A DNA stretch of 62,684 bases, counting the filler, from Aduncisulcus paluster (Eukaryota), in NCBI GenBank assembly GCA_024181965.1. It is 5 parts of 5 records of this genome, joined end to end, with 100 filler letters (N's around TTAATTAATTAA, not from the genome) between each part and the next. Parts side by side here need not be neighbours in the genome. Positions count along the whole stretch, not along the records: positions 1 to 20,727 come from BQXS01010957.1; 4 more parts are not named here. The stretch is one strand, 5' to 3'. The position numbers were made by a program, and so were the translations under genes. Below the pieces are notes generated by a model. It was not told where the DNA came from. It saw only the letters and a list, made by a program, of their open reading frames with translations, and did no database searches. The number at the start of each line of letters is the position of its first letter. Positions within the stretch are counted from its first letter, which is position 1. Below are positions 6,001-51,475 of this stretch, in pieces.

Positions 6001-7407
6001 ACAGGTTCCTCCTGGTCCACACTCTCTTCCTTGATCATCTGATGGACAACGGGAAGTCACACAATTGGTTGAAGGATCCCATCCAGCTCTACATTCAAAT
6101 TCAATTGTTCCATCTGTCTGAAGAACACACATTTTGTTCTCAAGAGCTTTCCCGTAACATACAGAAGTTGTGTCCTTTTTACATGAGGACGTTGAAGAGT
6201 CGTAAACATATCCCAGACGACACTCAAGAGCACCAAAATTATTGCAGACGAAACCAGTTTCAATCAGAGGATCGGATACACACTCGGAAGTTATTATTGA
6301 AGATAAGGATAAGGTAGTAGGAGTATGAGACCAAATATTATAATATTCAGTTGAAAATGAATTGTCCAAATAAGCTAAGTTATCGGTAATCTGAAGAGAA
6401 GAAATGGATGGAAGGAAGAGAAGAGGAGTATAATCGGAAATATATGGCGTAATAAGCGAAATTGAATCTAGATTTGTTGCATATTCAATTCCTTTGAGAG
6501 AATATATTAGAGAAGATTCAGAAATCGTTGTGATCATGCGTAAATCTGGCAAGCTAAGGAAACATCCATCGCTACCACATAAACTATTCCGAAGACTTTC
6601 ATCTTGGATGATTTGACATCTCCCTTGATTGTCTCTCGAAGAGAACCACATACATTCAAGAGAATCCGTCCTATCGTCAAATACTTCATTATTCAAGAGA
6701 CTGGAACATTCAGGGTCAACGCATGAACACTGACTGTTGGGAATCAATTGCCAGGAAGATATATTCGTCGAGCTGTAGATGGAGGAGAAATAACTCTCGA
6801 CCTCTGATGGGGTTTCTGAGAGGATCAAATCAATATGGAGATCGACGCCATTAGATAGACAAAGCATTGAGAGATTAGATAAGCTGAAGAGAGGGGATAT
6901 ATCAGAAAAAGGATTTCCATATAGTGTTAAGATAGAGAGAGAAAAAAGAGAAAAAAGAGGAATAATGGATGTAATCAAATTATTCGATAAGTCAAGAGTA
7001 ATAAGATTGGTTAAGGTTCCAATTGGAGATATATCCTCAATAGAATTGCTGCTAAGGTCCAGAGATGTTATCGATTGTAAATATTCAATTCCAGTCAAAT
7101 CATTAATAGAAAAACCAGATAAATTGAGGGATCCACTTGTAGATGCCATGGTACTCTGAAATAAATCACAAAGCGAGTTTGTAGACAAAATCTCATTACA
7201 GAGCGCGAGGTGAAGATTTTCATCTGGAAAATACACAATTTCATCATTAAATGTAGATATTAAGGGGGAAAATGTGTTTAAAGGTCCTGTATAATCATTA
7301 GATATAACAATAGCATTCGAAAACTGTACAACGATAAAATATAATAAAACAATAAAATAAACATGATAATTAGAATATAAATGATTGCAATAATGCAAAA
7401 TGCTCAT
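1..7407 (-). CDS. Giant internalin-like leucine-rich-repeat / Cys-rich surface protein, >=2469 aa, 3' end runs off the window
   Basis: Hand translation from ATG at 7407 gives MSILHYCNHLYSNYHVYFIVLLYFIVVQFSNA (hydrophobic signal-like), then VYFPDENLHLALC...LTGIEYL. The same frame at the window edge reads DPSPLYHLTNIVEIYLTHNNIC. The ORF track shows no stop-terminated piece in this frame, consistent with one open frame. Same motifs as the 20828-30387 protein. Confidence 0.85.
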   Translation of the reverse strand, partial: MSILHYCNHLYSNYHVYFIVLLYFIVVQFSNAIVISNDYTGPLNTFSPLISTFNDEIVYFPDENLHLALCNEILSTNSLCDLFQSTMASTSGSLNLSGFSINDLTGIEYLQSITSLDLSSNSIEDISPIGTLTNLITLDLSNNLITSIIPLFSLFSLSILTLYGNPFSDISPLFSLSNLSMLCLSNGVDLHIDLILSETPSEVESYFSSIYSSTNISSWQLIPNSQCSCVDPECSSLLNNEVFDDRTDSLECMWFSSRDNQGRCQIIQDESLRNSLCGSDGCFLSLPDLRMITTISESSLIYSLKGIEYATNLDSISLITPYISDYTPLLFLPSISSLQITDNLAYLDNSFSTEYYNIWSHTPTTLSLSSIITSECVSDPLIETGFVCNNFGALECRLGYVYDSSTSSCKKDTTSVCYGKALENKMCVLQTDGTIEFECRAGWDPSTNCVTSRCPSDDQGRECGPGGTCNTNTWQCECDSLSIFSPEKKLCIYYHGNDYETYIPDIHMRAILCYIYANSTPFLCDLSVDDIKSIPNSDLSSSPFFEQGLFSIEGIQHLSNMTSLPLSGNRISNISPLKGMCGQDFSLVNLTIDENLANPNNYIIDLSPIGGINFDTLSLSALELEVYDPFPLFRSRSFNTLKMDGLNICHDSNSFAFSDWTDNFWDLTNNFCIEPQCPMDPASCANDGNSNCPTTLINNMVYNPYLWGENSIGGVECAFGTKQTDSGLCRILHDENLSDYIFGDISSITLSQLKDLRELTSITFGGSGGSAADGYFHIPDNLVTSLEGIEFFQNLEEIDISNQSISNVEPLALIPTLTSIKCSNNSITDMSPLTSLPLVYLEPAYNNLDLFSEEMLALFTDLFPDVEFSGLSIPLEQKIPAICDGIDDKIGEYKVCVGQPSDVNPSSIIECQHGYYQNGMEEISATLGVGECLLDEYNICSNCGPLKKCVKYNFSDVYPYCMCRNGKFGNQCQYEVDIPDDWMRIALCYHRYSRAGLCNISLNELQSVSNDSLSAANSHITLLDGIEHLTSLNSIDLSLNSITDIKPMQYLEGISYLILSNNGISDLSPLSNYYHLISIDISTNYVFDLSPLYKNIELEELFFSGGVTSLFGNPICYSESNTEIISFLMGIFPNLTTSSSELTSMLGSVDTSGICPSDVSIRMTQNEVLDPISLEAKCAWFSVKHGYRCNAIHDYIVRRELCRLYYDDNSIEDCFMEVPEIRLVQGNLDLSPYSSEISTLHGLELATALSGLILDGYNFNESVTSEHDYLVIRILSRSYVYNTSQISGLSLSLANCNISSISNLFDYTSHSRLVSLSLARNSLRTVHNLFNFLDENNPIYSALAFLDISENIIFGALPFGLFESLRNRFQLLDSDSLNISPQSIESYQLSIPDPVMRREICSFVRGEEFPGSLCDISQTEMMNFTSSTTFAIDSSSETLYDLEGIQYLTNITVLILSGHKITDLSPLVELSILEELNLSSNLISDISPLSSLESLSVLDLSYNYIHHIYQLGVIYGLSNLNISHNPIFDISPLFHLSFVVFEFDGIKLCFSDSLEDFEEYIDDIFFDLSDSTGYSSYSLDCDLTTSSYPSLSSNELYNPYLVDSSGNVGAIECISIALDTAGTCEIIPDTELKDAVKDQGTISEITPATLRSSSLTTLNCDGLGISSLKGIQYLTSLENLVFSNNSIKNIKPLRFLMNLSNINLSDNSDIVDIYPIQHLPNVSSLDISNTSVCMNTSIAETLREWFPDASITVSEDIDSNLNDNSYWVVQSLLQLCVFGYYSDNSSVCVYHRACELCSTSQSCTLGDNSYPTCQCDDHYGPNCEYQTNIPDPWLRIKICEVLEGSSGFCDATSTAMSNYDDPLILEESHISNLEGLSLFNSISSISLGGNHVTSLDGLSALSGQLISINVSDNVLAEISIIREFEYLENFDCSNSGSSSFSNNRINDISPLSELVNLASVNIEGNNVYDISPLAHMVWLERFSIQNNKICFSESLDEMQAYFGGSGILGQLFPAVLISDRQNSSTQQCDIASSNSEPCTGSSCPSLLKNEVYDSFYRVKRCSHVTGVDGYGDDIDGKCHVIHDESLNTYLLSTLSSYYSGIPAYSDADYVINISDLRLLYGHIKILDTFIENIEGLEFATNISALTFNVNHSIRTGDSDRVGNVRVIQLLSRKINIEADETSNLRVGYQSGLEIIAFSTCDLTDATFDMAELFPFPTRISQFGTRFNSDLTENSLIFNPDIFPDIICLDLTGTSISSLDFISNYKSQLKKIYLSSCDNIEHFDVLTEFEQLTSIALDHTQFTDIGILVRSLSANILASIDLSYNYLGIMGFSAAGANCSLTDLPSLSVLRLENVIVIQQNSDEMSLSSDHVENLLISTSITSLTLSNNNIYTLTGLNMPALQRFYCNYCLLSDPSPLYHLTNIVEIYLTHNNICIGVNEDDLSDLFVSSNVNCIDFSDNSCNCENSSMY

Positions 7408-7811
7408 TTTGCAAAAAGAATTAATCGCCGATTTCTCTAATATGACAAAAATCAGCGTAATTATCCAAAAGCGCATCCTCATCACTCTCAATGACAAATT
7501 TTCTGTCATAAAAATTGAATTTTGTTGCTTTTTGAGCATGGAATTATAAGAATATTACCGTGATATTGTTTTAGCATTTCCAAATTTTCATAATCCATTT
7601 TGATTGAACTATTAGGTGTCCTCTGTCTATAGAAACATTATTTTTGTTTCTGCACTTATTGTATTCTGTTTAATATCTCTTTTAGGGAAAGTATCATTCT
7701 CATAATCTATCAAGTTGCTATCTTCGGAATAGCGTTTTTTTTTATCACTTTTCTTCCTTATACATTCATATATACCATTATCAATTCCATTTTTGTGATT
7801 TTATATCATAA

Positions 7812-9812: not shown

Positions 9813-10630
9813 ATCATTGAGATGGAAATATTCTCGGGACTCTCTTTCCAGCATTAATAATATGTTTTTTTTTTTTTCTTTTCTAATTCCTTTTTATTAC
9901 TAATCGTTCTCATCTTTTTTGTTTTGTTTTTTTGTTTTGCCAGATTTTCTTCTTATTATTTTCTCTATTTCCATACTAACCTATTGTGGCTAATTTTATG
10001 TAATTTATATGGTTTCATATAACATTACTCTTCTGTCTGATTTAGCATATTGTGATTCTTTCCCTTTCAAATGTTTCCTTGCTGTTTCTTACCTCCAAAG
10101 GGCGAATACTATATCTGAACATTTTATATTATATTATTTTATTATTACAAGACTTCATGTGTTTATTTCACTTGCAATGTGACTAAAAAAAAAATTTACT
10201 TTATTTTGGTTTCATATCATGGCCTCGGGCTCGTAAATTATGATAGATATTCATATATCTGTCTAGATATTGCATGTAATTGATTCGGGATGGATAATTT
10301 TGTCAGTTTTTTCTTCTGTTGTGACAACAGTGTTGTTGAAGCTGGAATAAAACAAGTGTCAAATAATAGTCCTTATAATCATCGATATTCTTCATCAATA
10401 CGGTTAAATTGTGCGTTTCGATTTGAAAATTTGTGTTGAACTGCCCTTCTTGAAGAAGAGCAAAAAATTCCATGCTCGATCTTAAGGAATATGGAAATAA
10501 AATTATGATTATAATTATAATATTTCCATTATATGGGTTATAATGAAAATATTAATTATGAAAATCTTAGTTACTATGTTAAATCTTGGTGAGGAGCATT
10601 TGTTCAAGTTTTTGGCCACAAAAACTGAAA

Positions 10631-13402
10631 ATGGTTCAATGGTTCACCATTCCAGGTGGCTGTAATTGGAAAAGTTATAAAAATGAGTTAAAAATAATTC
10701 AACACTCATGTATTAATGGTATCGCAACCGTCGAGGCTGTTGTCGATTGTTTTTTGAAATTACAGGAAATTAAGAGATGTGGAGACTTTCAAAAACGTTC
10801 TTTGACATTTATTTTCTCTGGAGCTTGCGATTTAGTTTCAAAACATAATGATCTATCATCTTCTCAAGTTCTTAATGATTCTATCGGAATGATGATTAAC
10901 TGTTGTCTTTTACTTGATCATAGGGATGGAATGGCTGATAAATTTGCAAAAATTTCTTCAAATAATCCTGTTTTTATTATTTCCCGTTTAATGTGTCTCT
11001 CGCTAAATGCTCTTGCCTTTTTAAATCTTTTTGATAATTATTCATATAATATGACCTTTCTAAAGTTTCCAGTGTCTCATTCTGGCAAGTATATTCCTGA
11101 AGATGGGATCCTCTTTCAGGTTGAGAAATGTGCTTGTATGCTCCAATACTTTATCGAGGCCAAATTTTCCTTTTCTGAGCTTGAAAAGAATTGTATTGTT
11201 CTTGTTCATCGTTCAATTTCAAAGAAATTTGTTCATGATGTTCTAAATCCCGAACCAATAATGAAATCTTCCAAAGGAAAGAAAAAGGGAAAGAAAAATA
11301 GATCAGTATATAGTAGTGATGAAATGGGAGTGTTTCTCGATGATTTCCATTATAAATCATTATATCCAACGTCGTGGGATATCTCTTCTGATCACTATGA
11401 AGCTATCATGGAGCAAAAACGGAAAGCAAGAAACCGACTCAAATTCAATTTTATTCCACAGTCCGTCCATAGTCATGGGGATACCGAGGTATGTCATGGC
11501 ACAAAACCCTCAATTACAATCTTATCGACGAAATCCTCTCTCCTCTCTCAGGAATTTATCTGTTCACGGACTGTTGGGGACTTTGCAAACAAGCACATCG
11601 GAGGTGGTGTGTTCGGTCGAGGAAGTGTCCAGGAAGAGATAATGTTTCTCACATGTCCGGACTTGTGTGTGAGTAAGTATTTATGTGAAGTTCTTGATGA
11701 TGAAAGTGCCGTGTGGATCTTCGGAGCACCATTAATCTCGAAATATGAAGGGTATAGTAGGAATTTTCGTTATGCCGGAAGAGTGAAGCTTCCAATTGAA
11801 TCGTATGGAAAAAAAAGTTCAGATAAAACTGATTCAATTCATCCGTTGTGCTTGTGTTCTGTTTCAGTGCAAGATATTCCCAAGGTTAAAATGGGTCAAA
11901 AAATATCTAAAACCCCAATTTCTCGTCAGATTAACATTTTGCCTTTTTGCATAACCGTGATGGATGCACTTCATTTTGAAGATAGCGGTTCTGATCTGTT
12001 ACAGCTTTGTCCTGGTAATTTTCTAAGAGAAGTTACAAAAGCCGTTGCAGCTTTTTCTCCTCCATCACTCCAACATATTCAAATTCGGGCCAGTGAGATG
12101 GGATCGGGATCATTGAGAACAGCGAGACCGTATTCTTATTCCGAGCTGATGAACAGCATTCTTGTTCTTTCACATGATGTTTGTTCCAACAATAATCCCT
12201 TGATCATTCGGACTCAGAACGTCAAAGATCTGTATGTTGGCGACCTCGTGAAGTGTAACTTCTATGACTCCGATTTGATCAATGAATGCATTGATTCGGA
12301 TGCTGGAGGGATAATGAAATTATTCTATCGACCGATTGTGAGTGGTCGGTGGGGATGTGGGGCCTTCAATGGTGATGGTCCCGTGAAAGGATTGGTGCAA
12401 ATGTTTGCACTATCAATTGCTAACTATCTGAACAGGGAGAAAATGGAGCAACAACTCAAGCAATCAGAGTATTCTCCTTCAGAATTTTTAATACATTTAG
12501 AACTGTGCCCATACAAAAACAAATCCGATAGTAAGTCATGGAAATCAATTGTAAAACGTATTTATTGTCGTGATATGTGTAGTTGTTTTCAAATATTATC
12601 CAATTTGGATAATTTCAGACAAGATGTGAAACAAAATGCAACATTGGCTGAATATATCAAATTTTGGGATCAATTTAATGAAGAAGAAGAAGAATCCCAA
12701 CCTGATGATCCTATTTTAGAGGCTGCTATAGTTCCTACAAAAGAGATTCAATCATCTGAACTGACTCAATCTTCCTTTGCAGAATCCATTCTATTGTCGA
12801 ATTCTGGTGGTGTATCATGTGACGTGTTATCATCTGTAATACCGTGTGATTCATCCTCCATTGTTCCCAGATCTGATCCAATACACGCCTCTTTAATACC
12901 AGAATATATCGATATATTCTCTGAAACTGTTTCTCAGAATGATGTTATTCCTCTAAATGCACCGATTGAGGTCAAAGATATGGAGGAGAGAAAAGAAGAA
13001 GAAGAGGAGGAGGGAAAAGAAGAAGAAAGAGAAGAAAAAGAGGAAGAAGAGGAGGAGGAAAAAGAAGAAGAAAGAGAAGAAAAAGAGGAAGAAGAGGAGG
13101 AGGAAAAAGAAGAAGAGGAAGAAGAGGAAGAAGGAGAAGAGGATGAAAAGAATGAAGAATCTTCGTCTGAATCTATTCAAACCCACATTTCCTCATTATC
13201 TATTACAATGGAAAGACAAATTGATTGCAAAGTTCCGAATCAACGTAAAATCTTTAGATTCTTTCGGAGAGTATCGTCTTCATTAATTTTATATAAAAAT
13301 CCTTTGCGTGAATATTATAAAAAACTTGAATTTCATTCTCTTTTTGACAAAACTCCCCAATATTCAAATCCATTGCAGAAAATTAGACAAAAGGCAAAAT
13401 AG
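10631..13402 (+). CDS. PARG: Poly(ADP-ribose) glycohydrolase with acidic C-terminal tail
   Basis: DFANKHIGGGVFGRGSVQEEIMF (GGG-x6-QEE catalytic signature), YEGYSRNF, MDALHF, SGRWGCGAFNGD. First ATG is at 10631 (the track starts at a TTG, 10586). Confidence 0.92.
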   Translation: MVQWFTIPGGCNWKSYKNELKIIQHSCINGIATVEAVVDCFLKLQEIKRCGDFQKRSLTFIFSGACDLVSKHNDLSSSQVLNDSIGMMINCCLLLDHRDGMADKFAKISSNNPVFIISRLMCLSLNALAFLNLFDNYSYNMTFLKFPVSHSGKYIPEDGILFQVEKCACMLQYFIEAKFSFSELEKNCIVLVHRSISKKFVHDVLNPEPIMKSSKGKKKGKKNRSVYSSDEMGVFLDDFHYKSLYPTSWDISSDHYEAIMEQKRKARNRLKFNFIPQSVHSHGDTEVCHGTKPSITILSTKSSLLSQEFICSRTVGDFANKHIGGGVFGRGSVQEEIMFLTCPDLCVSKYLCEVLDDESAVWIFGAPLISKYEGYSRNFRYAGRVKLPIESYGKKSSDKTDSIHPLCLCSVSVQDIPKVKMGQKISKTPISRQINILPFCITVMDALHFEDSGSDLLQLCPGNFLREVTKAVAAFSPPSLQHIQIRASEMGSGSLRTARPYSYSELMNSILVLSHDVCSNNNPLIIRTQNVKDLYVGDLVKCNFYDSDLINECIDSDAGGIMKLFYRPIVSGRWGCGAFNGDGPVKGLVQMFALSIANYLNREKMEQQLKQSEYSPSEFLIHLELCPYKNKSDSKSWKSIVKRIYCRDMCSCFQILSNLDNFRQDVKQNATLAEYIKFWDQFNEEEEESQPDDPILEAAIVPTKEIQSSELTQSSFAESILLSNSGGVSCDVLSSVIPCDSSSIVPRSDPIHASLIPEYIDIFSETVSQNDVIPLNAPIEVKDMEERKEEEEEEGKEEEREEKEEEEEEEKEEEREEKEEEEEEEKEEEEEEEEGEEDEKNEESSSESIQTHISSLSITMERQIDCKVPNQRKIFRFFRRVSSSLILYKNPLREYYKKLEFHSLFDKTPQYSNPLQKIRQKAK

Positions 13403-15942: not shown

Positions 15943-16247
15943 GGATGAGGATTTTTTCTTGAATTTATAAGATTGTTTTTAAAAAAGGCCTTTTATGAGA
16001 GGAGATACATTTTGGTTCAACTTCGAACATTGATATCTTATTAATTTTATTAAAAATCTACAATTATCATCAAAACAATCGAAGGTGAATCACAAATAGG
16101 ATGTATATTCGGACAAAATGACAATAATAACCCTCGAGAAAACAATAATGTAAATTAAGTATGGAAAGATGAATTGGAGTATTCAGTATTTGTCATCATA
16201 GATCTATTTGGACATGAATTTATAAAAATTTTTTAGAACAAAATATC

Positions 16248-16653
16248 TCACTGAGCATCTTGTAAAGCTTGTTCTTGAGTCTTACCCCTAGCATATGGAT
16301 TGTACTGTAAAAGCTGATCAACAAGATCAACATGAGTCAAAATCATTCTTCTGCAGCAATATCTTGTTAATCCTAAGGCCTCTAGAGCTTCTCTATCAGA
16401 GGAGTATCAAAAAAAGAGCAAAAATGTAAGGAAAGAAATAATTGGGGGGGGAATAAGGGAAAAATGACAATAAACATACTTTTGAGATTTTCCATCGGCT
16501 AATAATTTTGTATATGTTTCATATAAGTTCCCTACAACGTAAAATAGAAAAAAAATAACAAGTTAGTGAAATATCATGAAAAAATCCAGAAAGAAAGAAA
16601 TAATGGGTAATACATATTTTTCCACAGGTAAAACAGCGAACTGGGATAATCAT
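16248..16653 (-). CDS. RPB10: RNA polymerase I/II/III shared subunit RPB10 (RPABC5), 79 aa, 3 exons: 16653-16618, 16538-16480, 16392-16248
   Basis: Spliced translation [79 protein letters not shown] contains the hallmark [12 protein letters not shown] and RYCCRRM zinc motifs. Not in the ORF track. Confidence 0.95.
16393..16479 (-). other. RPB10 intron 2, 87 nt, GT-AG, phase 2
   Basis: GTATGT...pyrimidine-rich...GATAG; removal restores the frame into EALEALGL. Confidence 0.9.
16539..16617 (-). other. RPB10 intron 1, 79 nt, probable AT-AC intron, phase 0
   Basis: ATATGT...CACTAAC...TTTTTCTATTTTAC; removal gives GK-VVGN, matching the RPB10 consensus GK[IV][VI]G[ND]. Confidence 0.75.
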
Positions 16654-16981
16654 TGCTGATCTAGTTAGACAAATCAGATGAATTTGATATCTTCATGAAA
16701 CCTAATGAATTCGATATAAATGGATCATTCCTGCGATGATAACACCTCGTTAAAGCAATTTACTATATTTTTTTCCTTTCTATATCAGAGAATAAGAGGG
16801 GAATGGCAAAATATGCTGATTAATGAAGTATCTCTGTATAATAAAGATTGAGAACGGTTATAGGAGGTAACAACAAATTGATAAATCGTATTTTTGTTTC
16901 TTGGAACAAATAAGATACAGATATAAATCATCTAAAAATAGGTGATGATACAATATTGTTCAATCCACCATTTGGCACGCT

Positions 16982-18814
16982 ATGAGTAAGACATCACGTA
17001 CAGCTATCGTTAATCCTGATCGCTGCAAGCCTGAGATATGTAGTCAGGAATGTCGTAGGGTGTGTCCAGTTGTTAAGATGGGGAAAAGATGTATCGTCGT
17101 CACAAAGAAGATTGCCATGCTTTCTGAAACTCTTTGTATTGGTTGTGGTATATGTCCAGGTAAATGTCCTTTTAAAGCAATCACAATTATCAATCTTCCA
17201 AGTGATTTGGATGAAAAACTCATTTACAGATATGGAAGAAATGCTTTTAAACTTCATCGGTTACCTACCCCTAGACCCGGTCAAATTCTTGGTTTGCTTG
17301 GTCAGAATGGTATTGGTAAAAGTACTGCTCTGAGAATTATGGCAGGAAAATTGGTTCCTAATTTTGGTAATTTCAAGGAAGAATCTGATTGGGAAGATGT
17401 CTGTGAATATTTCCGTGGTTCAGAATTGCAAGCATACTTTAAGAAAGTGGTGGAACAATCAATTGTTGTTCGTACAAAGCCTCAATACGTTGATGTTATT
17501 CCTAAGAAGATTCCTGGAAGTGTCGGAAACGTTTTAATGAAACTCCACTCAAAACCCCTTCCTATTGTCAAAGATATTATAGCGAAATTGGATCTTGTTC
17601 ATCTTCTCAAGCGTAAAATCAAACTTTTGTCCGGTGGTGAGCTTCAGAGATTCGCCTGTGCTTTGAGCATGGTTCAAACGGGAACAATGTACATGTTTGA
17701 TGAGCCTTCTTCATATTTAGATGTTAAACAGAGATTGACCGTTGCTAGAATGATTCGTGACATGATTGTCGGTGATCACGAGGTTTATTCCATCGTTGTT
17801 GAACATGATCTTGCTATTCTTGATTATTTGAGTGATTTTGTATGTGTTTTGTATGGTACCCCCGGTGTATATGGTGTGATCACCTTCCCATTCAACGTTA
17901 GAGATGGAATCAATGTATTTTTGGCTGGTTTTATCCAAACTGAGAATATGAGGTTCAGGGATTATGCTATTTCATTCAAAATGACAACAGATACCGATGA
18001 AGAAGAGGGTGAAGCCAGTGATGTCATCCGAGAGCAAGAATACCCCGATATGCGTATTGATAGAGACGAATTCCACCTCACTGTCGAGGCTGGAAAGTTC
18101 AGAGACTCTGAAATTGTTGTTCTTATCGGAGAAAACGGTATGGGTAAGACCACTCTGATCCGTGCTTTGGCTGGTATGAAGGGACTCGATCCCAAAGAGC
18201 TTGACAGTGATGATTTGGTCGATATGCCTTCCCTGTCTGTCTCCATGAAGCCTCAGAAACTCTCTCCTTCCTTTGAGGGTACAGTTGAGCAACTTCTCAA
18301 GAAGAGAATTAGGCCAGCTCTTTCCCATGCTCAATTCCAGACAGATGTGTTCAAACCTATGAACATGGATGTCCTCATGGACAGAACTGTCACTGAGCTG
18401 AGTGGAGGTGAGCTCCAACGTGTCGCTATCGTTATGGCTCTTGGAAAGCCTGCTGATGTCTATCTTCTCGATGAGCCCAGTGCTTACCTTGATGCCGAAC
18501 AGCGTATGATCACCGCAAAGGTTATCAAGAGGTTTATTTTACATTCCAAGAAGACTGCGTTCGTTGTTGAGCATGATTTCTTGATGTCCACCTACCTTGC
18601 TGACCGTGTGATCATCTACTCCGGTGAACCTGGTGTGAAATGTACTGCTCACGCTCCCCAGGGTCTTGTTGCTGGAATGAACACTTTCTTGAAGAGTCTT
18701 GATGTCACTTTCAGGCGTGATCCAACCAACTTTAGACCTAGGATTAACAAATTCCTCTCTCAAAAGGATAAGGAACAGAAGGCCACCGGTGATTTCTTCT
18801 TCGAGGAGAAGTAA
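16982..18814 (+). CDS. ABCE1: ABCE1/RLI1 Fe-S ribosome-recycling ATPase
   Basis: N-terminal Fe-S cysteines (CKPEICSQECRRVCP; CIGCGICPGKCPF), two ABC domains (GQNGIGKS, LSGGELQR, DEPSSYLD; GENGMGKT, LSGGELQR, DEPSAYLD), C-terminal TFRRDPTNFRPRINK. Confidence 0.98.
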   Translation: MSKTSRTAIVNPDRCKPEICSQECRRVCPVVKMGKRCIVVTKKIAMLSETLCIGCGICPGKCPFKAITIINLPSDLDEKLIYRYGRNAFKLHRLPTPRPGQILGLLGQNGIGKSTALRIMAGKLVPNFGNFKEESDWEDVCEYFRGSELQAYFKKVVEQSIVVRTKPQYVDVIPKKIPGSVGNVLMKLHSKPLPIVKDIIAKLDLVHLLKRKIKLLSGGELQRFACALSMVQTGTMYMFDEPSSYLDVKQRLTVARMIRDMIVGDHEVYSIVVEHDLAILDYLSDFVCVLYGTPGVYGVITFPFNVRDGINVFLAGFIQTENMRFRDYAISFKMTTDTDEEEGEASDVIREQEYPDMRIDRDEFHLTVEAGKFRDSEIVVLIGENGMGKTTLIRALAGMKGLDPKELDSDDLVDMPSLSVSMKPQKLSPSFEGTVEQLLKKRIRPALSHAQFQTDVFKPMNMDVLMDRTVTELSGGELQRVAIVMALGKPADVYLLDEPSAYLDAEQRMITAKVIKRFILHSKKTAFVVEHDFLMSTYLADRVIIYSGEPGVKCTAHAPQGLVAGMNTFLKSLDVTFRRDPTNFRPRINKFLSQKDKEQKATGDFFFEEK

Positions 18815-19060
18815 GGAAAATATATCAATCATTTTTGTTATCTGAGAATCATTAACATTTATTTGGATGGTGTTTTACGCTCCGTCTTTTCCGATAAATA
18901 AAGAAATATCTCCATTTGATTGCCTTTTTTAATAATTTTATTTGCAATTATCATGATAATACAATCAATTAGCATGACATCAACATCATGATCCTTGTTG
19001 CTCAGAACGATGACTGAGTCAGTTCATCATTTTCGTCCTCTTTCTTCGATAACAACTATA

Positions 19061-20727
19061 ATGGATTTTATTCCTTCATGTATGTTGTGTTTACTTATCT
19101 GTTTATTCTTTTCTCCTTGTATAAATATGTTTTAAAACGAATCTAATTTGTCATGAATATTGTTGTCGCTATTCACTCTGTTTTAACATAGTTTCAAAAG
19201 ATATTCATCCAGAATTTGCTTGCAGATGGAATTTAACTCCCCATGAAATCGAAGCCTTGACTGAATATTGTATTGATGTCGATAAGCGTCTTGTTGATAC
19301 AATCGTCAGAATTCCTGACTGCCACCGCACATACGAAAATACAGTTCAACCTCTGGTTCAAGATGTTTTGTATGAATCAATTGAATCTAGTTTCACCATC
19401 GTTTCTTACGTATCCAAGTTCAAATCTGTAAGAGAAGCATCTTACAAAGCCAGAGATAAACTTAGTCAGTATGGAGTTGGTCGATACATGCGTAAAGATC
19501 TTTATTTGGCCCTCAAGGCTGTTCATATTAATGAAGTCGAGAAAGCCAAAATCCATCCTGAAGAGGTGAGAATTCTCGATAAAATGGTAAGAAACAGGGA
19601 ACAACGGGGTCTTATGCTACCTATTGATGAGCGTGAGAAATTGACCAAACTCAAGCAAAAGATGGCCTCTCTCAAAACTGAGTTTAATCAAGCTGTGCAA
19701 TCAGATGATACCCAATTCCTTTTCACCTCTGATGACCTCAAAGGATTGCCCGAGTCCTTCTTTAAAGGTCTTGAGAAGAAGAAAGATGATGATGGTATTG
19801 AGAAATTCGTTGTGACCCTGAAATATCCTCACCTTGTCCCAATATTACAGAAATGTTCTGTCAGAAAAACAAGACAACTCATGGAAAAGGCAAAGAACAA
19901 TATTGGAAATCCCAAGAATTTGGACCGTCTGTTGGAGATTGTGAAGCTTCGTCATGAAGTTGCCCAATTATTGGGTTACAAGAGTCATGCTCATCTCGTT
20001 CAGATTGAGAATATGGCTAAGAATCCTGAGAAGGTTCAAGATTTCTTGAATGATATCTTCTCTAAATTCAAGAAACAGGCTGACCTTGAGAGAGAACGTG
20101 CCTTCTCCATCGGAAGGGAAGAATGTGGGGAGTCTGTTGCCGTCGATGAGGGTGAACAAGAGATGTTCAACGCCTGTGATATCTCATATTTGCTCCAAAA
20201 GATCGAAGAGAAGGAGTACCAATTCGATAAGGAACTTGTACGTCCCTATTTTGAGCTCTCTTCCACTTTTAAGAGTATCTTTGCTATTTTTGAAGAAGTG
20301 CTCGGTGTTGAGATCATTGAAGTCGAAAAGGAAGTAGATGAACCAGAATTGAAGGAAGAAAAAGAGGAAGGAGCAAAGGAAGAGGAAGGAGCAAAGGAAG
20401 AGGAAGGAGCGAAAGAGGAGGAAGGAGAAGAGAAAAAGGAAGAGAAGAGTCCCGTTGATAAAGATGCTTTGATTGCTGAAGGATGTTTGATTGCTCAACG
20501 GATCCGTAAGACATCCATGCTCACTTCCGATGGGAAAGTTCGTGTTTGGCATGCCGATGTTCGTCCATTTGCTGTATATACTGCTGAGGACCCTGAAAAC
20601 CCTCTCCCTAAAGAGCACCGTTTCCTCGGTTACCTTGTGTGTGACCTTCATCCAAGGACTGGAAAGTATTCCCACGCCTGTATGCTTCCAATCGTTCAAC
20701 CCTGTCGTAGACGATTCTGGGACTCCT
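19061..20727 (+). CDS. Peptidase M3A (thimet oligopeptidase/neurolysin-like), one 112-nt intron at 19080-19191, truncated at contig end
   Basis: Exon 1 MDFIPS, intron GTATGT...CATAG, then RWNLTPHEIEAL; VTLKYPH, AQLLGYKSHA, MAKNPEKV, RPYFEL, VWHADVR, DLHPRTGKYSHA are M3A motifs. HEXXH lies beyond the break. An upstream in-frame ATG exists at 19010. Confidence 0.88.
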
Positions 20728-20827
20728 NNNNNNNNNNNNNNNNNNNNNNNNNNNNNNNNNNNNNNNNNNNNTTAATTAATTAANNNNNNNNNNNNNNNNN
20801 NNNNNNNNNNNNNNNNNNNNNNNNNNN
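20728..20827. other. Artificial contig linker
   Basis: N run, TTAATTAATTAA (stops in all six frames), N run; 100 nt. Confidence 0.97.
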
Positions 20828-23800
20828 TATAAAGGAGAGATGTCAACAAGGGAATTGTGTGCAACATTCAACTCATCGAGAGCAAGATGCACAATGGATA
20901 AGAGATCGGAATCTACAAGACCCAGGGAGGCAAGGCCTAAGGAGGAAATGGAAGAGAAACTCACAAGAATGGATGGGTCAAACAATGAAGTCGTTTCTAC
21001 AATATCATCATACAACGACGCACCATTCATTATCAGCTCCGTCAACGAAACATTGGTAGAGTCGGCAGCAACAAGAAGAGGACTAACATCGATAATGGAT
21101 GTTTCGGCGAGATTGAGAGAGCTCAAGGAGGTGTACGTATCAGCACACTCGGAAGTGTCGGGAAGAGCAGACACAGAAGTGACAGAAGAGAGGGTCAGAG
21201 TGGAGAGTGAGTGAAGGGAGCAGATGAACGATAGATCAGAAAAGCCTTCAATGGCATTCCCATCAGCATCCACAGGAGCACCATACATGTTATGGGCAAG
21301 GGAAAGGGACTCAAGACCATGCAGAGAGCCCAATGGATCAGCACTCACAAAGTTGTGATATGGCAACGAAATGGATGTAAGAGAGCGGATATGTTCAATT
21401 CCATCAAGCAGGGAGAATCTATCAGAGTTGGAGAGAGCAAAACCATCGTTGGACAAAGTGGAGGAGGAAATGGTTCTCAATGAAGCCACGCTGAAAAGGG
21501 AAGGCGTGGAATCTGTTCTGTGCGTGTAATCAGGATTGTCTTCAGAATCCACAAACATATCAGCAACATATGCATGTAAGTTCTCATCAACAATCACAGG
21601 ATAACATGAAGAGGTGGATTGAGTTAATTCATCATCATATCTACATTCATATCCATACTCACAACCACCAGGACATCCATATGTTTCACCATCTGTGTTG
21701 AGTGGAGCTAGACACTCGAAGATATCGATAGATGTGTATGATGCGATACTATGGCTGGAACACACATAATGCCATGAACCAGATCCAGGTACAGTCTCAC
21801 TGCACACGACATTGTCAGTGATCGGGGTATCGGTGTATCCAATTGCAGTGCTATCAGAGGAACATTCGCAGGTCTGTGTCGTAGAAACCGGCGATCTTGT
21901 GATATTTGAGAACTTTGAAGCAAGGTCGCTTGTCGATTCGGATCCAAAACATATCTTATTATTATCAATTGAAAATCTAGAGGAAAAAGAAATGTTATAT
22001 AGCGGAGAGAGATCAGATATTGAACAACCGACAATTGAAAAAGATCGAAAGTAAGTTATCCCAGCTTTTGCCAGAGGAACTAAAGACGTGATATCTAAAT
22101 TATAAGCCAGAGAGACGGTTAAAAGTGTTGATGCGCTATTAGAAAGATCAGGGATATTCAATAGATTACAATTTATGAGGATAAGCGATATTAAACTTGT
22201 CATGCTCGAGATGACATCATTGAAGTTGTCATAAATCGGATAATTAGAAAAATAGAAATATGCGATGGTAGATCGCTGATTTTCTGACAATGAATCAATA
22301 GATGTTATTGTAGAATCTTCGCCTCCGAAATATAAATGTTCAAGGGAAGGTAACCGATCATTCCCAACATTTGTATTAAAACCGGCTTGAGAAATTGGTG
22401 TCCCCTGAATATATAAGTTTTTGATATTGGACGGTAGAACATTCTGATCTGAAGGAAGAGATATAAGCGAATATGAGAAAGATAATGTCTCAAGAGCAAC
22501 CAAAGCCGTGAAATCGGGCAAATCAAACGCAATAATTCCTGAAAGATTGGGTAAAGAAATGGAATTAAGATTGGAAAGAGTTGACAGGGGTATGAGATCA
22601 CTGGTTTTAGAGAAATCAGAATAACCTAAATAGATTGATTGCAAATTTTCAATATGTTCAAGCCCGGATAGATTACTGACAATATAATTACTTGAATAAC
22701 TCATTGTAATAGCTTCAAACGTCTTCAAGGAAGCCACGCTGAAAAGTGATGGAGTAGAATTTGTTCGATGAGTATAATCAGCATTTTCATCAGAATCTAC
22801 AAACATATTGGCAACATAATCATGCAAGTTATCATCGACGATCACTTGTTGACACTTTCCAGTAGAATATGTAACATCACTAATCACTTCATCGCCAAGA
22901 TATCTACACTCATATCCATACTCACACCCGCCAGAACAGTTCGTGGTGGATGAATCTGGTTGGATACATGTAAAGTCCTCAGCAGATGTGTATGACGTGT
23001 ATGAATCACTGGCACACACAACATACCATGCACCAGACCCAGGAAGAGTCTCAGCACACACCTTGTTATCAGACAGACTAGGAATGGGATCCGAGTCTGA
23101 ACATCCGCAGGTTTGATTGGAAACATCTATGAACAGGTCAGGAGAAGAACTAAATATATCCTCAAAAATAGTCTGGACATCATCTCCACAGATATAATTA
23201 TTGGTCAAGTAAATATAACTCCAAGTGTTACTGGACAAAGCAAACAATGGGGAAGGATCAGAAATGGCACATTCCCTCGCATAAAAATAGGTTAAATTTG
23301 TAAGACCAGAAGAGACAATAGGAGTAAGGGATGCAAGAAGAGGATTTAAGTTGATATTGAGAATGGTCAAAGTTTTTGCTTGAATTGAGAGGTCTGGAAT
23401 TGTTTGTAAATTACAATCGGCCAATGAGAGGGCTTCTAGATTTGACATTTCAGCAAGAATGTCAGGAAAATTCTCAAATGTATCGATTGGAGAACTTCTC
23501 CAGATAAAAGTTTTCATATTTTGCTTTTGACTTGCTGTCAATGAATCAATTGATGTGAGTAAATTGTTGTCTCCTCCAATAGCAAGTTGTTCAATATCAG
23601 GAAGATATCCATTACCGACATTCATGGCAAACCCCTCGTTATTCACATTTGAAAAGGAACAATAAAAGCCTTTGAGTGATGTGGGGAGGATATATTCCTC
23701 AGAAGGAAGAATTATTGAGGTTTTCTGAATTGCCAAAACATCCAAAGATGTTAATGAAGTGAGGGTGGGCAAATAAGAAAGACTTGAATTCCTACCTAAA

Positions 23801-26800
23801 TATAACTCCACTAAATTCGTGAGAGTTGATAATAAATCAAGATGAATATCATCCGAATCAGCAGAAAAAACACCGAAGAAAGCAATCGATTTAATCCCAC
23901 CAAGGTGCTCAATACCTGATAAATCATCGATAGGAAGAGATGGATCATTATATTGAATTTGAGGATAATATTCATAACCCATGGGCACAGAAACCAGAGT
24001 TTTTAGAGAAGCAACACTGAAAAGGGAAGGAGTGTCGGATGTTCGATGGATATAGTTTGCAGTTCCATCATAATCAGTAAATAAATCAGCTACATAATCA
24101 TGCAAGTTCTCATCAACAATCACTTGCTGACACTCCCCGGTTGAATAACTTATGGAAACATCTCTAACAAGACCAAGATATCTACACTCGTATCCATACC
24201 CACACCCTCCAGAACAGTTCGTGGTACTCGAAGAGGTTGGTTGAGTGCATGTAAAGTCCTCAGCAGATGTGTATGTAGTGTATGAATCACTGGCACACAC
24301 AGCATACCATGTGTTAGATACCCCAGGATTGGTCTCAGCACAGACCTTGTTATCAGACAGACTAGGAAGAGAATCACAATAACAGACTTGAAGATCAACA
24401 CGTATTACAATATACGGGGAAACAGGCAGAAATATACTTTCAAGAACAAGCAGAACCTCAGAATCACCACCACAGATGTAGTTACTGGACAAATCAAGGC
24501 TGTTCCAAGAAGTATTGCTGGCTAAAGCATACAATGGGGAAGGATCAGAGATATTATTGTTGTTCAGAGATAGTTCAGTCAGATTGGGCATGCTAGCAAC
24601 AAGATGGAACAACAGAGAAATCGAAGTGTTGTTTGCACTGAAAGAGGTGAGAGAAGAAGGGAAAAGACCAGATTCAGTGATATCATATTCTGTGTTATCA
24701 TTAAGAGAGAGCGTTGAAAGATTCAAAAATAATGTGAAATCGGCATTGGCAGCAATATCACATTCGTCAGCATATATTTCAACTATAGTCTCTGGAATAG
24801 AAGAAAGATCAAAGCTCGTGCATCCACTGATATCAATAACATTCAACGAGGAAGGGAATGAACTTGAATCGGGACTAGATGCTGTATTTCTCTTCATAGA
24901 TAAAAAACCCAGATCCTCAAGCGCAGAGAAATCAGGGGATTCAATCAAGTCAACATTATCAAGTGTGAGGGATGTAATATAGGATGGAAGACAATCCAAT
25001 CCGTGGGAATTATCCACAGACATATTTGATCCACTGATATCAAGCGATGACAATGATGTCAAATCACTGAGTTCAGATAAATCCCAGATAAGATTGTCAG
25101 TATAGTCAGAACGTGAGAGATCCAGTCTAGTCAATCCTGTTGCGTATGCCAATCCTCTAATGTCAGTGATATCGGTTTCATCGGCGAGATTAAGAACAGA
25201 TATCGTTGACAGTTCTGACATAGTGATATGCCCATCAGAACTACATGTCACACCACTAAGCCCACAGATATGTGACTCAAGATCAGAATCATTGAATGTG
25301 ACATATTGGCAAGCAGATCCCATATAATCAGTCGATTCACACCCACATGAATGACTACCAATATCACATGATCCATGTGACCCACATTCCAAGGAGTCAT
25401 AATATGGGCACTCATAATCACATTCATCTCCATACCATCCTTCAATACACAATGTTTCAGTTCCATCAATGCTACAACACTCAACATTCGCATTATCCAT
25501 GGATGATTCAACACACGTGGGGAATGTGTCAGGAGAAGTGTAGTTATCCGATTCATCAAGATATGACACACATGAACTTGAGCCATCTCCATTGTCTACT
25601 TTGTAACTATACAGATTACACTCCACACTCCATTGTTCGTGGGAAGTAGTGGTTGTTGTGATCAATCCAGTCCCATTATCTTCCTCCACAGTTTCCGTCC
25701 AGTCCCACACTTTACGACAGATCGTGTTGGAGGAAAGAGACGCGGCAGAAGAAGTATCTGAACAATGAATAACGGGATCACCAGCAGTCTCAGAGGATGA
25801 ACAGAAACCACAGGAAGAAGTGTCCTGTGCGGAAGATGTGATGGAAGGAGGATAAGTTGTTGCATTCATTAAGGGAAAGAAAGAATACAAAGCTGCCAGT
25901 CCCTCATCATCAAGGTCACAAATGGCATTATTACTGATATCAAGGGTGGACAATGTTGTATTGAGTTGATACAATGATGATATGTCTGTAATTAAGTTAT
26001 TTGTCATGGATAAGGTTGATAAAGAGGACTGTAGCGGAATAATATATTCCAAATAACTATCAGAAATGCTCATATTGTTCATGCTTAGCCATTCAAGATT
26101 GGTAAAGAATTGTAAATCACTCAATACACAGGAATCCATCCCATCTATATACAAATGTGTAAGAGTCGAGTTGTAAGATCCCTGCGCAGATGTCCATTCA
26201 AGCACTAGTGGGTCGAGAGACGTTATTCCTGAATTGATTATCGATAAAGACGTTAATAATGTCCCGGGAGATATACATGTTAAACTGGTTAATGAGGGAA
26301 TATTATCTAAAATAAGGGTACTAATATTATTAATCGTGACACCATCAGCTTGTATATTATAATTACAGAAAAACTCACAGAAATCAATAGCGGTACATCC
26401 AGATACATCAAGGGAAATCAAAGATAAAGGATATGTGCCACATGTAGTAAGTGAATAGGATGAATTATCATGCAAAGTGAGAGAAACAAGGGATGAGAAA
26501 TCAGCGAATGAGGCATTTGATTCCACATTCATATCATTGAGAATGAGTTCTGTGAGAGAGGCGTGTGGAATGTTGGCGATCTCGGTATCTCCAATTGTCG
26601 TTAAAGCAGAGTTCCTTCCAGTTGCACTGAAATATGTAAGATTGGTAGCAACTGACAGACCTTTGAAAGAATCAACATTTGTAACCGTTAGAGATGTTAG
26701 AGTGAGCATTTCGGATAATAGAATGTCATTGCAATCGCTCGGATGGGAAAGAACTGAGCAGATGGCAGAACGGAGGTTGTTATCAGGAATATACACATAA

Positions 26801-29800
26801 TTACAGTACTCGCCAATGAATAGGGAATCAAGACAGGCACATATAACTGCAGTGGAACCCTCTTCAAGCAGAGCGATTTGCATATTCTCTTTCCGTTCAC
26901 ACACACGGCACCGAAGTGAATTATTTGAGGTATATGACGAACTATCGATGCACTTATCTGTATCGGCATCATACACATAATTGGCCTCACATGCCTTAAT
27001 GCATGAATCTGAGCTACGATCGAAGTAATACCCATTCCAACACTCGGTTTGATAATTTCCATCGACCTTCAATCTACAAGTTTCATATGACAAGAATGAA
27101 ACACCTTCTGAACAAGGACAATCATTTTGTTCAGAAATATCAAAATTTGTCGTGGGAAAAGTATTTAGTAATACCGAGGAAATATTTTCTGCAACATCAC
27201 AAATAAAATTGTTGGATAGATCAAGGGAATCAATGGAACCGTTGGAAAACAATTCATTTGTCACTAAAATTGACACATCAGTAATATAATTATACGAGAG
27301 GTCAAGAACATAAAAATTGAAGGAAGTGACTGATGAATCGTCCCCCACAACAGGTGCAAGCTCAAACACATCCTCAATTTTATAAATTCCACACCATTGC
27401 ATCGTTAAAGAAGATAGACCAGCCGTTATTACGGAGTTATTAATCCGTTTCGTGAGAATTTTCAAGACGGTTTTATCATACTCAGGTTTTGTTGATAAAT
27501 TGTAATTATACAAGTTTAAAGTGGATAAATTACTGAAATATTCAAGACCTTGGAGAGAAGATACTTCTTCGGAATCAATTGTCATTGTACACCCTGTGGT
27601 ACAAGTGATGTTCCTCACATCTGCAACACTTATCACATTGGATGACTGAAGGTCGAATTCTTCACTCATGAGATTTCTTATTATGGGATCGTGGAAAGTA
27701 TAGCATACCAATTGACCCGATACATCCTCAGCAAGGGCAATTGATGAACACGTAATGGCATTCGTATTAGCATCATAGATTTCATTATTTACAATACTTG
27801 GACAATTACTAAAGGCTAAACAAGTTGGTGTTTGAGACAAAGGGCATTCAGTATATAACAAATAGTCATCAGATAAATAGTTGCCCGATATATTAGGGAA
27901 GATACTCTCTATATAGGTTCCAAAGACAGAATCTTCTTCAGAACGACACAAAGGTATGGAATTAAGAGAAAGATTGATTATTTCAATATTTCGATAGAGA
28001 ATGGAAATGTCATTAATTGGACTATCAATGAGGGCAGCAGAAGTCAAACGAGATGCTGAATATAATGACGATATATCAGAGAAAGGGACGGAGCCTATAT
28101 CAATTAAATATATCTGTGGAAGTGATTCAAGGGCATAAATCCCAGATAGCATGGAAGTATCGGAAATGTAGACTTTTCCAACGTCAAGAACATTCTCAAC
28201 ACCCTCAAGTGTAGTCAGTTCACTTCCGTAGATTTGAATATAGTCACCAATATCTGCTATGTCAAATTCAGAGAGATCACAGCCAGCTACAAAGTTACAA
28301 GAAGTACACAAGATATCCCTCATATGTTCATCTGGAATATACACTTGATACAATTGATCACAATCATCTCCATACCAGGCTGCACGACAACCACATGTGA
28401 TAGATGAAGCTTCTTCCTCAAGAACAGGCATCATAGTGGAATGGCCTTCACAGACTTGGACACGAATAGCATCATCAACAGAGGTACTACTCACAGATAC
28501 ACATGAATACGGGGTTGTGGACATATCAAGTTCAGACCCACTCGCACATACCTCAAGACACTCTCCACTGGCTTTGTCAAGATAGTACCCATTCCAGCAC
28601 TCGACAGCCCAACGATCGGGATACACTTCTCGACATACTTGGTGGTCAGAAGAAGACACGGATGCAGAACAATGGCATGTTTGGTCAGAATATGTCAAGG
28701 TTGATAGGGTTGGGAATTCGGTTTGCAATTGACTCACCATTCCTTCAATGTCACAGATATTATTATCACTGATGTTAAGAGTTGTGAGAACAGCATCAGT
28801 ATCATCAGGGAACATGGACGATGTAATGAGAACGGAAACATCAGAGATGGAGTTGTTTGAGAGATTAAGTGAAGTGAGTTTGAAGGGCTGTGTGGTCAAG
28901 TCACCAGCAGCAATTGGAGTCAGATCCAAAATATCACTGAGAGCATTCAATCCGCACCCACTCGCAGATAAAGATGTTAGACCAGAATCAATGGGTGTTC
29001 TATCTACACTCGCATATGTCACAGCTTTTGCCAAAGTCTTTATGACCAACTTATCAGTCACTGCAGAACCATAACCATCATCACCACTCAGATCGTACCC
29101 ATCGATACTCAAAGAGGACAAGAAAGTGGCATACTCAAGTCCTTTCAAAGAAGTGATATCATTCACTGAACTTAAAGACAAAGATGAAACAATTACAGAG
29201 AGATTAAGTGAGGAACAAGTGAAATTGGAACTTCTCAATGTGGCCACACTGATCACTCCGTTATCTTGAATGTTACTCACACATCCTCCCAGACTAGCAA
29301 GTGATAAGTAAGCACGAATGTAATCATCATGGATGGTATAACACTGACCATCGGAACCTTCCTTCGCAATGAACGCACACTGCTTGGCATTTACACCGTT
29401 GACACTGTTGAACACTTCATTCTGAATGATTGAGGGGCACTCATCAATATTTGAGGAACAATAATACTCTCCAGGGCTATTTAAAGGACAATTATTGGCA
29501 TAATAAATTGGATTCTCTGCGAACCGTGGGTGTATAGGGAAGACGGCCTGAATAAAAGCCTCAAATGAATCGTAATCCTCACTTCGACAGAGAGAAAGAT
29601 AAGATTCGGACGAAGGATCGCTGGATATGAATTCAAAGGTTCCAACGTTTTGATAAAGCGAAGAGATATCATAGATATTGTCGTTGCCATACAATGTGAT
29701 TGTGGAGAATCGTGATAGATAGGATAGATCGTCAATATTTGCAAGAGAATCCAGAGTGTCGGTGAGTGATATCGAATTCAGCTGGGTGAGGGAAGAAATT

Positions 29801-30387
29801 GGAGAAAATGATGCCAAGGTACTATTTGTAAATATTAGTTTATCGACATTGTACAAATATTGAATTCCTTCAAGGTCAGAAAACCCATTTAATTCATCAG
29901 AAAAGGTTCCAGTAATACTGGCAAGCTCAAATTCAGAGACATCGCAGAGAGTGGAATCATAGCCAGTTGAATTGCAAAGAGACAGTCGTAATTCGTCATC
30001 TGGAATGTAAACTTGATAAGTTGATGAGGTTTTGACCCCGGGGAAAACCTCAAAGTCAGAATAAGGTGAGTTCACGGAGGCTCCATAGACAGCTAAGGGT
30101 CGGAGCATTATAACAAATAAAAGTCCAAAATGGATAGTTTGCATCCGAAATTGCAAAAGTAGAGAGAGAAAAAACAGAAGGATTAAAGCTAATACAGGAA
30201 ATGGAACAATATTGAAGAGGATGGGAAGAATAGGGAAACGGATACAAAGAACAAAGCATAAAATCCCGAGAATGTCCTTCAAAATTATTGAATTATTTGT
30301 AATACTGTTTAAAAATTCATTTTTAATACAGTGATGGATTGAAGAAGTAGAGATACCAGTATTTGTTTGGTAAGCCGAAGATTTCAT
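20828..30387 (-). CDS. Giant internalin-like LRR / EGF-like Cys-rich surface protein, >3180 aa, truncated at contig end
   Basis: N-terminal hydrophobic segments; repeated blocks of [VI]YIPD-x-L cap, LxxLxLxxNxIxDxSPL repeats, NNxIC C-cap, and EGF-like modules (CGSHGSCDIGSHSCGC...GSAC; GWYGDEC). Confidence 0.9.
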
Positions 30388-30584
30388 TTTTCAATCGCTT
30401 AATTTGCCAAATAAAAGATTATTGACACTCACAAAACTTCAATTACAGGAGAAAGACGACTCCTTTGAAATCTAGCTGATTATTGTTAATTGTTGAGCAA
30501 AACTCGATATTCTTTTGATTATATTGAGTATAAAATGGTTAATTTATTTTAAGAAAATAATAACTTCAGAAGGCTAATTACGAG

Positions 30585-36084: not shown

Positions 36085-36168
36085 GCACGGATGGCCGAGT
36101 GGTCTAAGGCGCAAGACTAAGGATCTTGTGTGGATTACCACGCGTGGGTTCGAATCCCACTTCGTGCA
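36085..36168 (+). tRNA. tRNA-Leu (anticodon AAG)
   Basis: Acceptor GCACGGA/TTCGTGC+A, D arm TGGCCGAGTGGTCTAAGGC, anticodon arm CAAGA-CTAAGGA-TCTTG, long variable arm, T arm GTGGG-TTCGAAT-CCCAC, followed by a TTTT Pol III terminator. Confidence 0.97.
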
Positions 36169-38465: not shown

Positions 38466-38565
38466 NNNNNNNNNNNNNNNNNNNNNNNNNNNNNNNNNNN
38501 NNNNNNNNNTTAATTAATTAANNNNNNNNNNNNNNNNNNNNNNNNNNNNNNNNNNNNNNNNNNNN
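38466..38565. other. Artificial contig linker
   Basis: Same N/TTAATTAATTAA linker. Confidence 0.97.
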
Positions 38566-51375: not shown

Positions 51376-51475
51376 NNNNNNNNNNNNNNNNNNNNNNNNN
51401 NNNNNNNNNNNNNNNNNNNTTAATTAATTAANNNNNNNNNNNNNNNNNNNNNNNNNNNNNNNNNNNNNNNNNNNN
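51376..51475. other. Artificial contig linker
   Basis: Same N/TTAATTAATTAA linker. Confidence 0.97.

Follow-up and report, generated by a model that had tools for sequence, protein, structure and literature searches.

The U2-type AT-AC introns are very rare, the survey of Sheth et al. (2006; PMC1557818) reporting 24 of them among 608,562 U2-type introns from five species, and the compatibility between first and last intron nucleotides on which such introns depend is documented in the sources drawn upon here by the rescue of an A at position +1 by a terminal C in yeast and by the animal introns of SCN4A and SCN5A (PMC1557818, PMC5029451). The engineered /AT-AC/ actin intron of yeast (Parker and Siliciano, 1993, as related in PMC5029451 and PMC1557818) carries a GUAUGU-type donor in which the G1 was changed to A, that change being rescued by a replacement of the last G with C; and, according to the same two accounts, its branch is of the UACUAAC type and no spliceosome other than the major one takes part in its removal (PMC5029451, PMC1557818). 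Among the Fornicata, an AT-AC intron whose motifs are nearest to the U2 type is reported for Giardia lamblia (Roy et al., 2012, Mol Biol Evol; via PMC3510501), the snRNAs of which organism are described as hybrids of the major and minor kinds (PMC3510501, PMC6679479). For the Excavata that were analysed, one survey gives no strong evidence for minor introns and no minor-spliceosome snRNAs (PMC11347168), and for the metamonad Monocercomonoides exilis the published account reports that neither AT-AC borders nor U12 components were found (PMC6759080), while the genome papers on Kipferlia and Carpediemonas contain no mention of AT-AC or U12.

Free-living and Carpediemonas-like, Aduncisulcus paluster is a fornicate, related to Giardia, whose draft genome of 29.4 Mb comprises 15,316 predicted proteins as well as 11,743 introns (PMC9933649). 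The literature searched gave no description of splicing in this organism; one could exist beyond that literature. We analysed a 62.7-kb stretch of the genome, referred to in its entirety as the window, and found that the first intron of its RPB10 gene is quite probably an AT-AC intron that is constitutively spliced and bears signals of the major type. As in the animal type II AT-AC introns of SCN4A and SCN5A (PMC1557818), as these are described there, the 5' site is U2-like except at position +1 and a U12 branch motif is lacking; but whereas the animal consensus is given as /ATAAGT (PMC5029451), the A. paluster site is /ATATGT, following the local GTATGT, and this intron—classed from sequence alone—differs from the animal ones also in its yeast-like CACTAAC branch and its metamonad host. 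The yeast actin case, for its part, is an artificial double mutant, whereas RPB10 intron 1 is natural and is located in an essential gene. With the Giardia intron it shares the membership of its host in the Fornicata, the AT-AC termini, and motifs nearest to the U2 type (via PMC3510501), so that the reference to Giardia made in the original prediction was apt; yet in the introns of Giardia, as that source relates, the branch motif is fused with the 3' site, the distance being short and invariant—diplomonad and parabasalid introns likewise having such a fusion—whereas in RPB10 intron 1 the branch motif is separate, 24 nt and a T-tract lying between it and the end of the intron.

From its matches we identify the locus as the RPB10 (RPABC5 / RNA polymerase subunit N) gene of A. 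paluster, which runs on the minus strand from the ATG at 16653 to the stop at 16248–16250 and consists of three exons and two short T-rich introns (Table 1). The open reading frame of exon 3 matched the Pfam family RNA_pol_N (PF01194) with an E of 4.8e-13 and 49.5 bits over profile positions 29–58 of 58, the curated Pfam cut-off for this family being 26.9 bits, and the read-through ORF of exon 1 aligned to profile positions 1–17 with an E of 1.8e-4 and 22 bits, a score under that cut-off. A search of 5.8 billion proteins with exon 3 as the query returned 39 matches, the top one being GKT35283.1 (P0001), a 79-aa protein of A. paluster entitled "DNA-directed RNA polymerase, subunit N/Rpb10 like protein," to which PF01194 is assigned in the precomputed domain table; the identity was 96% over the entire query, and the two mismatches were intron-derived residues at the query start. 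In an alignment of RPB10 homologues the zinc ligands C7, C10, C44, and C45 were invariant; and the product of the locus carries the CxxC...CC zinc ligands together with the GKxxG loop, this loop being present in 138 of 142 homologues and the ligand spacing of 34 being shared with 126 of those 142. Divergently oriented from RPB10, at a distance of about 300 bp, is an ABCE1/RLI1 gene devoid of introns (Fer4_RLI together with two ABC_tran domains; 16949–18811, plus strand), and a 939-codon ORF at 10583–13399 (plus strand) contains PARG_cat_C, a poly(ADP-ribose) glycohydrolase domain (E 1.4e-36).

Table 1. Coordinates of the RPB10 gene and its splicing signals, of the introns used for comparison, and of other features, as positions along the 62.7-kb window
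Feature	Position	Strand	Details
RPB10 exon 1	16618..16653	-	from sequence; phase 0 end, last codons GGA AAA; residues 1-12 of GKT35283.1
RPB10 intron 1	16539..16617	-	79 nt, AT-AC termini, GC 0.22; removal gives GKT35283.1
Intron 1 5' splice site ATATGT	16612..16617	-	as the local GTATGT donor, A replacing G1
Branch-site motif CACTAAC	16562..16568	-	presumed branch A 16563, 24 nt upstream of last intron base
Pyrimidine-rich tract and 3' splice site TTGTTATTTTTTTTCTATTTTAC	16539..16561	-	ends TTTTAC; pyrimidine fraction 0.86 from branch to acceptor
Competing in-frame GT-AG pair	16532..16613	-	GTATTA..TTGTAG, 82 nt; nested, its borders 4 nt and 7 nt off those of the AT-AC pair
RPB10 exon 2	16480..16538	-	from sequence; opens GTT GTA GGG AAC TTA TAT; ends with 2 bases of K32
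RPB10 intron 2	16393..16479	-	87 nt, GTATGT...CTGATAG, canonical GT-AG, GC 0.33
RPB10 exon 3	16248..16392	-	Pfam RNA_pol_N; stop TGA 16248-16250
M3 peptidase gene intron 1 (comparator)	19080..19191	+	112 nt, GTATGT...CATAG, GC 0.27; Peptidase_M3 E 6.9e-30
Probable 5'-UTR intron	38960-39065	+	GTATGT...long T tract...CTTAG, 106 nt; before ATG 39089 of 381-codon ORF
Small gene with two GTATGT introns	40870-41700	-	introns from 41481 and from 41241; last acceptor may be second AG of CAGAG
Candidate GTATGT donor	38380		intron cut off by contig end
tRNA matches (two)	36085-36168; 56485-56557	+; -	Rfam
Artificial linkers	20728-20827, 38466-38565, 51376-51475, 56715-56814

On the minus strand intron 1 reads ATATGTATTACC...TTTCACTAACTTGTTATTTTTTTTCTATTTTAC, with the AT at 16617–16616 and the AC at 16540–16539. 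At RPB10 all the coordinates and letters of the original prediction proved to be correct on that strand: exon 1 ends with GGA AAA at 16618 and is followed by ATATGT at 16617–16612; CACTAAC (16568–16562), a pyrimidine tract, and a TTTTAC whose AC ends at 16539 precede GTT GTA GGG AAC; and the GTATGT donor is indeed that of both intron 2, at 16479, and the M3 peptidase intron, at 19080. Since the bases flanking the two borders differ—on the minus strand, 16618 is A versus C at 16539, and 16617 is A versus G at 16538—no shifted pair of borders yields the same mRNA, and the AT-AC junction is therefore unambiguous, the intron starting with AT and ending with AC at borders that are unique for the product. 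Between the branch motif and the acceptor AC there is no other AC. The GC content of intron 1, at 0.22, may be set beside the 0.33 of intron 2, the 0.27 of the M3 peptidase intron, and the 0.36 of the coding sequence.

The motif at 16562–16568 is the sole CACTAAC of the window on either strand, and we infer that it acts as the branch site of intron 1. By itself CACTAAC is not enriched in the window, 3.4 occurrences being expected versus the one observed, so that the weight rests on the combination of the signals and on how exactly that combination fits the borders of the exons in a conserved gene. The composite pattern ATATGT-N30-60-ACTAAC-N10-40-YAC had a single match on both strands of the window, located exactly at 16539–16617, where 0.03 were expected, and at least one match occurred in 3 of 100 shuffled controls. 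A strict scan of the window—ATATGT, CTAAC, first AC, and a pyrimidine fraction of at least 0.7—gave two matches, intron 1 included; the other, at 26844–26687, is most likely due to chance and lies inside a 3,187-codon ORF. A scan for GT-AG and AT-AC introns through ORF continuity produced 3,117 candidates that were mostly spurious, and it was dropped.

Apart from its +1 base, the 5' site of intron 1 coincides with the donor consensus of A. paluster as used here (ATATGT versus GTATGT), which consensus derives from six candidate introns of the 62.7-kb window, is exactly GTATGT by construction in the six sites that were judged to be donors, and has homology support in only two of them, namely RPB10 intron 2 and the M3 peptidase intron, the other four being without such support. 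Those six were selected from the 24 GTATGT sites on both strands of the window, most of which are inside long ORFs. For the 381-codon ORF that starts at ATG 39089, downstream of the probable 5'-UTR intron, no Pfam match was obtained. Two giant ORFs on the minus strand, at 1–7554 and 20830–30390 (2,518 and 3,187 codons), are open at contig ends and contain many leucine-rich repeats (LRR_4, E 5e-43 and 3e-25, respectively); these two account for most of the GTATGT and ATATGT sites that occur by chance in the window. The window itself consists of five contigs joined by identical linkers, each of 44 N + TTAATTAATTAA + 44 N, across which adjacency is meaningless. Elsewhere in it, a Ty3/gypsy-type retrotransposon pol ORF (51811–54924, plus strand; 1,038 codons with zf-CCHC, RVT_1, RNase H, and an integrase zinc domain) is followed in a different frame by a chromodomain ORF (54885–55142, plus strand), and two minus-strand ORFs, 41910–42986 and 42853–43428, overlap by 134 nt in different frames, which overlap could stem from an intron that escaped recognition or from a frameshift, or could represent two genes; a 62-nt candidate intron, GTATCC...TCTAG, within the overlap does not supply the frame change needed.

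The AT-AC splice joins GGAAAA to GTTGTAGGG, thus encoding CGKVVGN, and the resulting product is identical to GKT35283.1 in all 79 residues. The original prediction had anticipated from this splice the residues GKVVGNLY, the length of RPB10, and its conserved Gly, along with an in-frame GT-AG alternative that would give GKIWNLY, one residue short and devoid of the Gly; both expectations were borne out, the latter by joining the exons. The GT-AG product, reading ...CGKIWNLYETY, has IW instead of VVG, is one residue shorter, and is without Gly15. Against a profile constructed from 150 homologues, from which GKT35283.1 had been left out, the AT-AC product scored 144.3 bits and the GT-AG product 130.7 bits, or 13.6 bits lower. 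The larger set of homologues had been found with the AT-AC product, GKT35283.1, as the query and thus leans toward the AT-AC form, for which reason the residue counts were repeated in a set found with exon 3 only and therefore unbiased for the N-terminus: this set has 38 proteins, of which 30 retain the CxxC...CCRR frame and eight have foreign or missing N-termini. Among those 30, position 15 is Gly in 29 and Ala in one, with a gap in none, while between C10 and the CC pair the spacing amounts to 34 in 21 proteins, 35 in six, 33 in two, and 44 in one; the AT-AC product has a spacing of 34, as against 33 in the GT-AG product. The RPB10 of Carpediemonas membranifera, the nearest named relative, aligned without gaps to the AT-AC product (the aligned pair including CGKVIANLWEPY). 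As judged from these homologues, the conserved CGKVVGN segment of the zinc loop, with its Gly and the common Cys spacing, is regained with no splice but the AT-AC one. The two mixed combinations were rejected, the AT-AG (16617–16532) shifting the frame and the GT-AC (16613–16539) running into a stop.

A scan of metagenome contigs with GKT35283.1 retrieved 80 loci, all of them contiguous—that is, intronless—and at most 72% identical, which loci are uninformative on the position or the ancestry of the introns. Three metagenome-derived RPB10 ORFs (P0010, P0013, and P0016) have unrelated residues directly before a 14-residue RPB10 segment, and their starts thus look as if an intron were located near the intron-2 site in other uncultured eukaryotes.

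The deposited annotation of A. paluster was generated by Braker2 with TopHat RNA-seq alignments as hints (PMC9933649), and GKT35283.1, as issued from that pipeline, already is the exact AT-AC product. The junction is therefore implicit in the public annotation, and the contention of the original prediction that standard annotation would miss or mis-splice the intron fails. AUGUSTUS admits AT-AC borders solely where they are "hinted" splice sites, the option for this being named in a preprint on Physarum (bioRxiv 10.1101/2020.10.12.336362). Reads from a GT-AG mRNA could not be aligned to the AT-AC junction without mismatches. Provided that the hinted AT-AC option is on by default in Braker2 2.1.6, the presence of an AT-AC intron in the model deposited implies that there were spliced reads. 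The RNA-seq-hinted annotation and this software default, taken together, make it likely that the AT-AC junction is used in RNA. Words sampled from positions 16150–18900 were looked up in sequencing runs, none of which is recorded as RNA: all 277 of 277 were present in run X1, possibly a DNA run, and a share of 0.61 in run X2, guessed to be RNA.

That the GT-AG pair GTATTA..TTGTAG might be the real and sole intron, with the zinc loop having undergone a one-residue deletion and the deposited model being wrong, is highly improbable: canonical termini, the preservation of the frame, and a TAG acceptor that is a good one and follows the pyrimidine tract of the AT-AC intron speak in its favour, and so do the 130.7 bits that its product still scores and the occurrence of a spacing of 33 in two of the 30 homologues; but its product forfeits the Gly15 that 29 of those proteins possess (the remaining one having Ala) along with the 13.6 bits, the RNA-seq-hinted model uses the AT-AC borders, and the decoy donor is weak, GTATTA deviating from GTATGT at both +5 and +6. 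Somewhat less remote, though still unlikely, is the use of both pairs, with the AT-AC splice furnishing the main functional mRNA and the 16613–16532 splice a minor isoform containing GKIWNLY. The two pairs, after all, are both in frame and have one branch site and one pyrimidine tract in common, and for the yeast RPL30 it has been documented that unconventional nested sites are used at a low level (PMC5029451); against such an isoform stand the same two departures of its donor from GTATGT and the fact that the deposited model carries the AT-AC form only. With respect to an assembly error that would have concealed a true GT and a true AG at the same borders, spliced reads are blind to the ends of an intron, so that the annotation would be compatible with such an error; we nevertheless hold it to be extremely improbable, in that it requires two independent errors placed at exactly the first and the last intron base, in a genome of 29.4 Mb for which 69.9 Gbp of Illumina reads were produced (PMC9933649). 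The full complement of sampled words in run X1 likewise argues against an error, with the reservation that X1 may be the source data of the assembly and that the words may miss either base.

The AT-AC reading being thus preferred, the question remains of the machinery that would remove the intron, and here the minor (U12-type) spliceosome, or a hybrid with U12-like features as has been proposed for Giardia, must be considered. U12-type introns are characterized by the donor ATATCCTT and by the branch TCCTTAAC situated about 10–15 nt from the 3' end of the intron. The AT-AC termini of RPB10 intron 1 are typical of U12-type introns, and TCACTAAC matches six of the eight letters of the TCCTTAAC consensus; but the intron, while it has the same terminal dinucleotides as the U12-type AT-AC introns, has neither the donor ATATCCTT, its 5' site being ATATGTAT, nor the branch TCCTTAAC near the 3' end, since TCACTAAC places the branch A 24 nt from that end instead of at the usual 10–15 nt. 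Neither ATATCC nor CCTTAAC was found within intron 1 by sequence scan, just as had been predicted, which absence is the basis for the U2-type label; and the published rule for the U12 5' site is RTATCCTT (PMC2846911). In the rest of the 62.7-kb window there were no credible U12-type introns, the combinations of donor and branch being far apart or inside long ORFs, and no snRNAs were detected by Rfam at the gathering threshold, the window being a small share of the genome. The two tRNA matches were the only Rfam ones; one is a tRNA-Leu(AAG) found by both Rfam and ARAGORN, and the second, at 31.9 bits, is just above the cut-off and was not found by ARAGORN. The snRNAs of Giardia that combine major and minor features (PMC3510501, PMC6679479) lend a hybrid some plausibility, whereas the accounts cited above for the analysed Excavata (PMC11347168) and for M. 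exilis (PMC6759080) report no minor snRNAs; on balance, we consider the participation of a minor or a hybrid machinery very unlikely. The evidence—a U2-like branch site and pyrimidine tract, no U12 motifs, and signals that, the two terminal bases apart, agree with what is seen in the local GT-AG introns—supports the assignment of the intron to the U2-type ("type II") AT-AC introns rather than to the U12-type, as the original prediction maintained, its use in RNA being likely; but since the snRNAs of Giardia are described as hybrids, "U2-type" denotes here a classification by signals only.

We propose that intron 1 would be removed by the major-type spliceosome in the following manner. The /AUAUGU site, in keeping positions +2 to +6 of the GUAUGU donor of the species, would be recognised like an ordinary donor, and CACUAAC, at 24 nt from the 3' end, would provide the branch. 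Given an A at +1, the second catalytic step would pair this A with a terminal C and not with a G; because a first base A needs a last base C, the first AC past the branch would be used and the AG located 7 nt further downstream would be skipped. As to history, the simplest account would start from a GT-AG ancestor, in which A took the place of G1 and C that of the last G, and the AT-AC termini presumably arose by those two changes. The in-frame GT-AG decoy is probably an accident, because a GT at +5/+6 is inherent in every GTATGT-type donor and the AG comes from the codons GTA GGG; a minor use of that pair would be possible.

By its sequence, RPB10 intron 1 thus belongs to a rare intron kind that is already known and whose engineered equivalent is the classic yeast experiment, the rescue of A1 by a terminal C. 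What the locus adds is its host, an essential gene, highly conserved, in a relative of Giardia that is free-living, with a yeast-like donor and branch; and the GT-AG decoy, being in frame and only 4 and 7 nt off, makes of it a clean natural substrate for the matching of splice partners through the pairing of first and last nucleotides, a process of interest in a lineage with a reduced spliceosome, one that has been called a hybrid of major and minor. For gene models in such protists, RNA-hinted callers that allow AT-AC are needed, the deposited A. paluster annotation being right in this instance. The interest would rise if a genome-wide count revealed a class of such introns in fornicates. It is doubtful, though conceivable, that GTATGT-like AT-AC introns form a recurrent class in A. 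paluster and that the single spliceosome of fornicates ancestrally tolerates termini with A first and C last; if this were true, the AT-AC intron of Giardia and RPB10 intron 1 would be remnants of a lineage-wide relaxation in the choice of terminal nucleotides.
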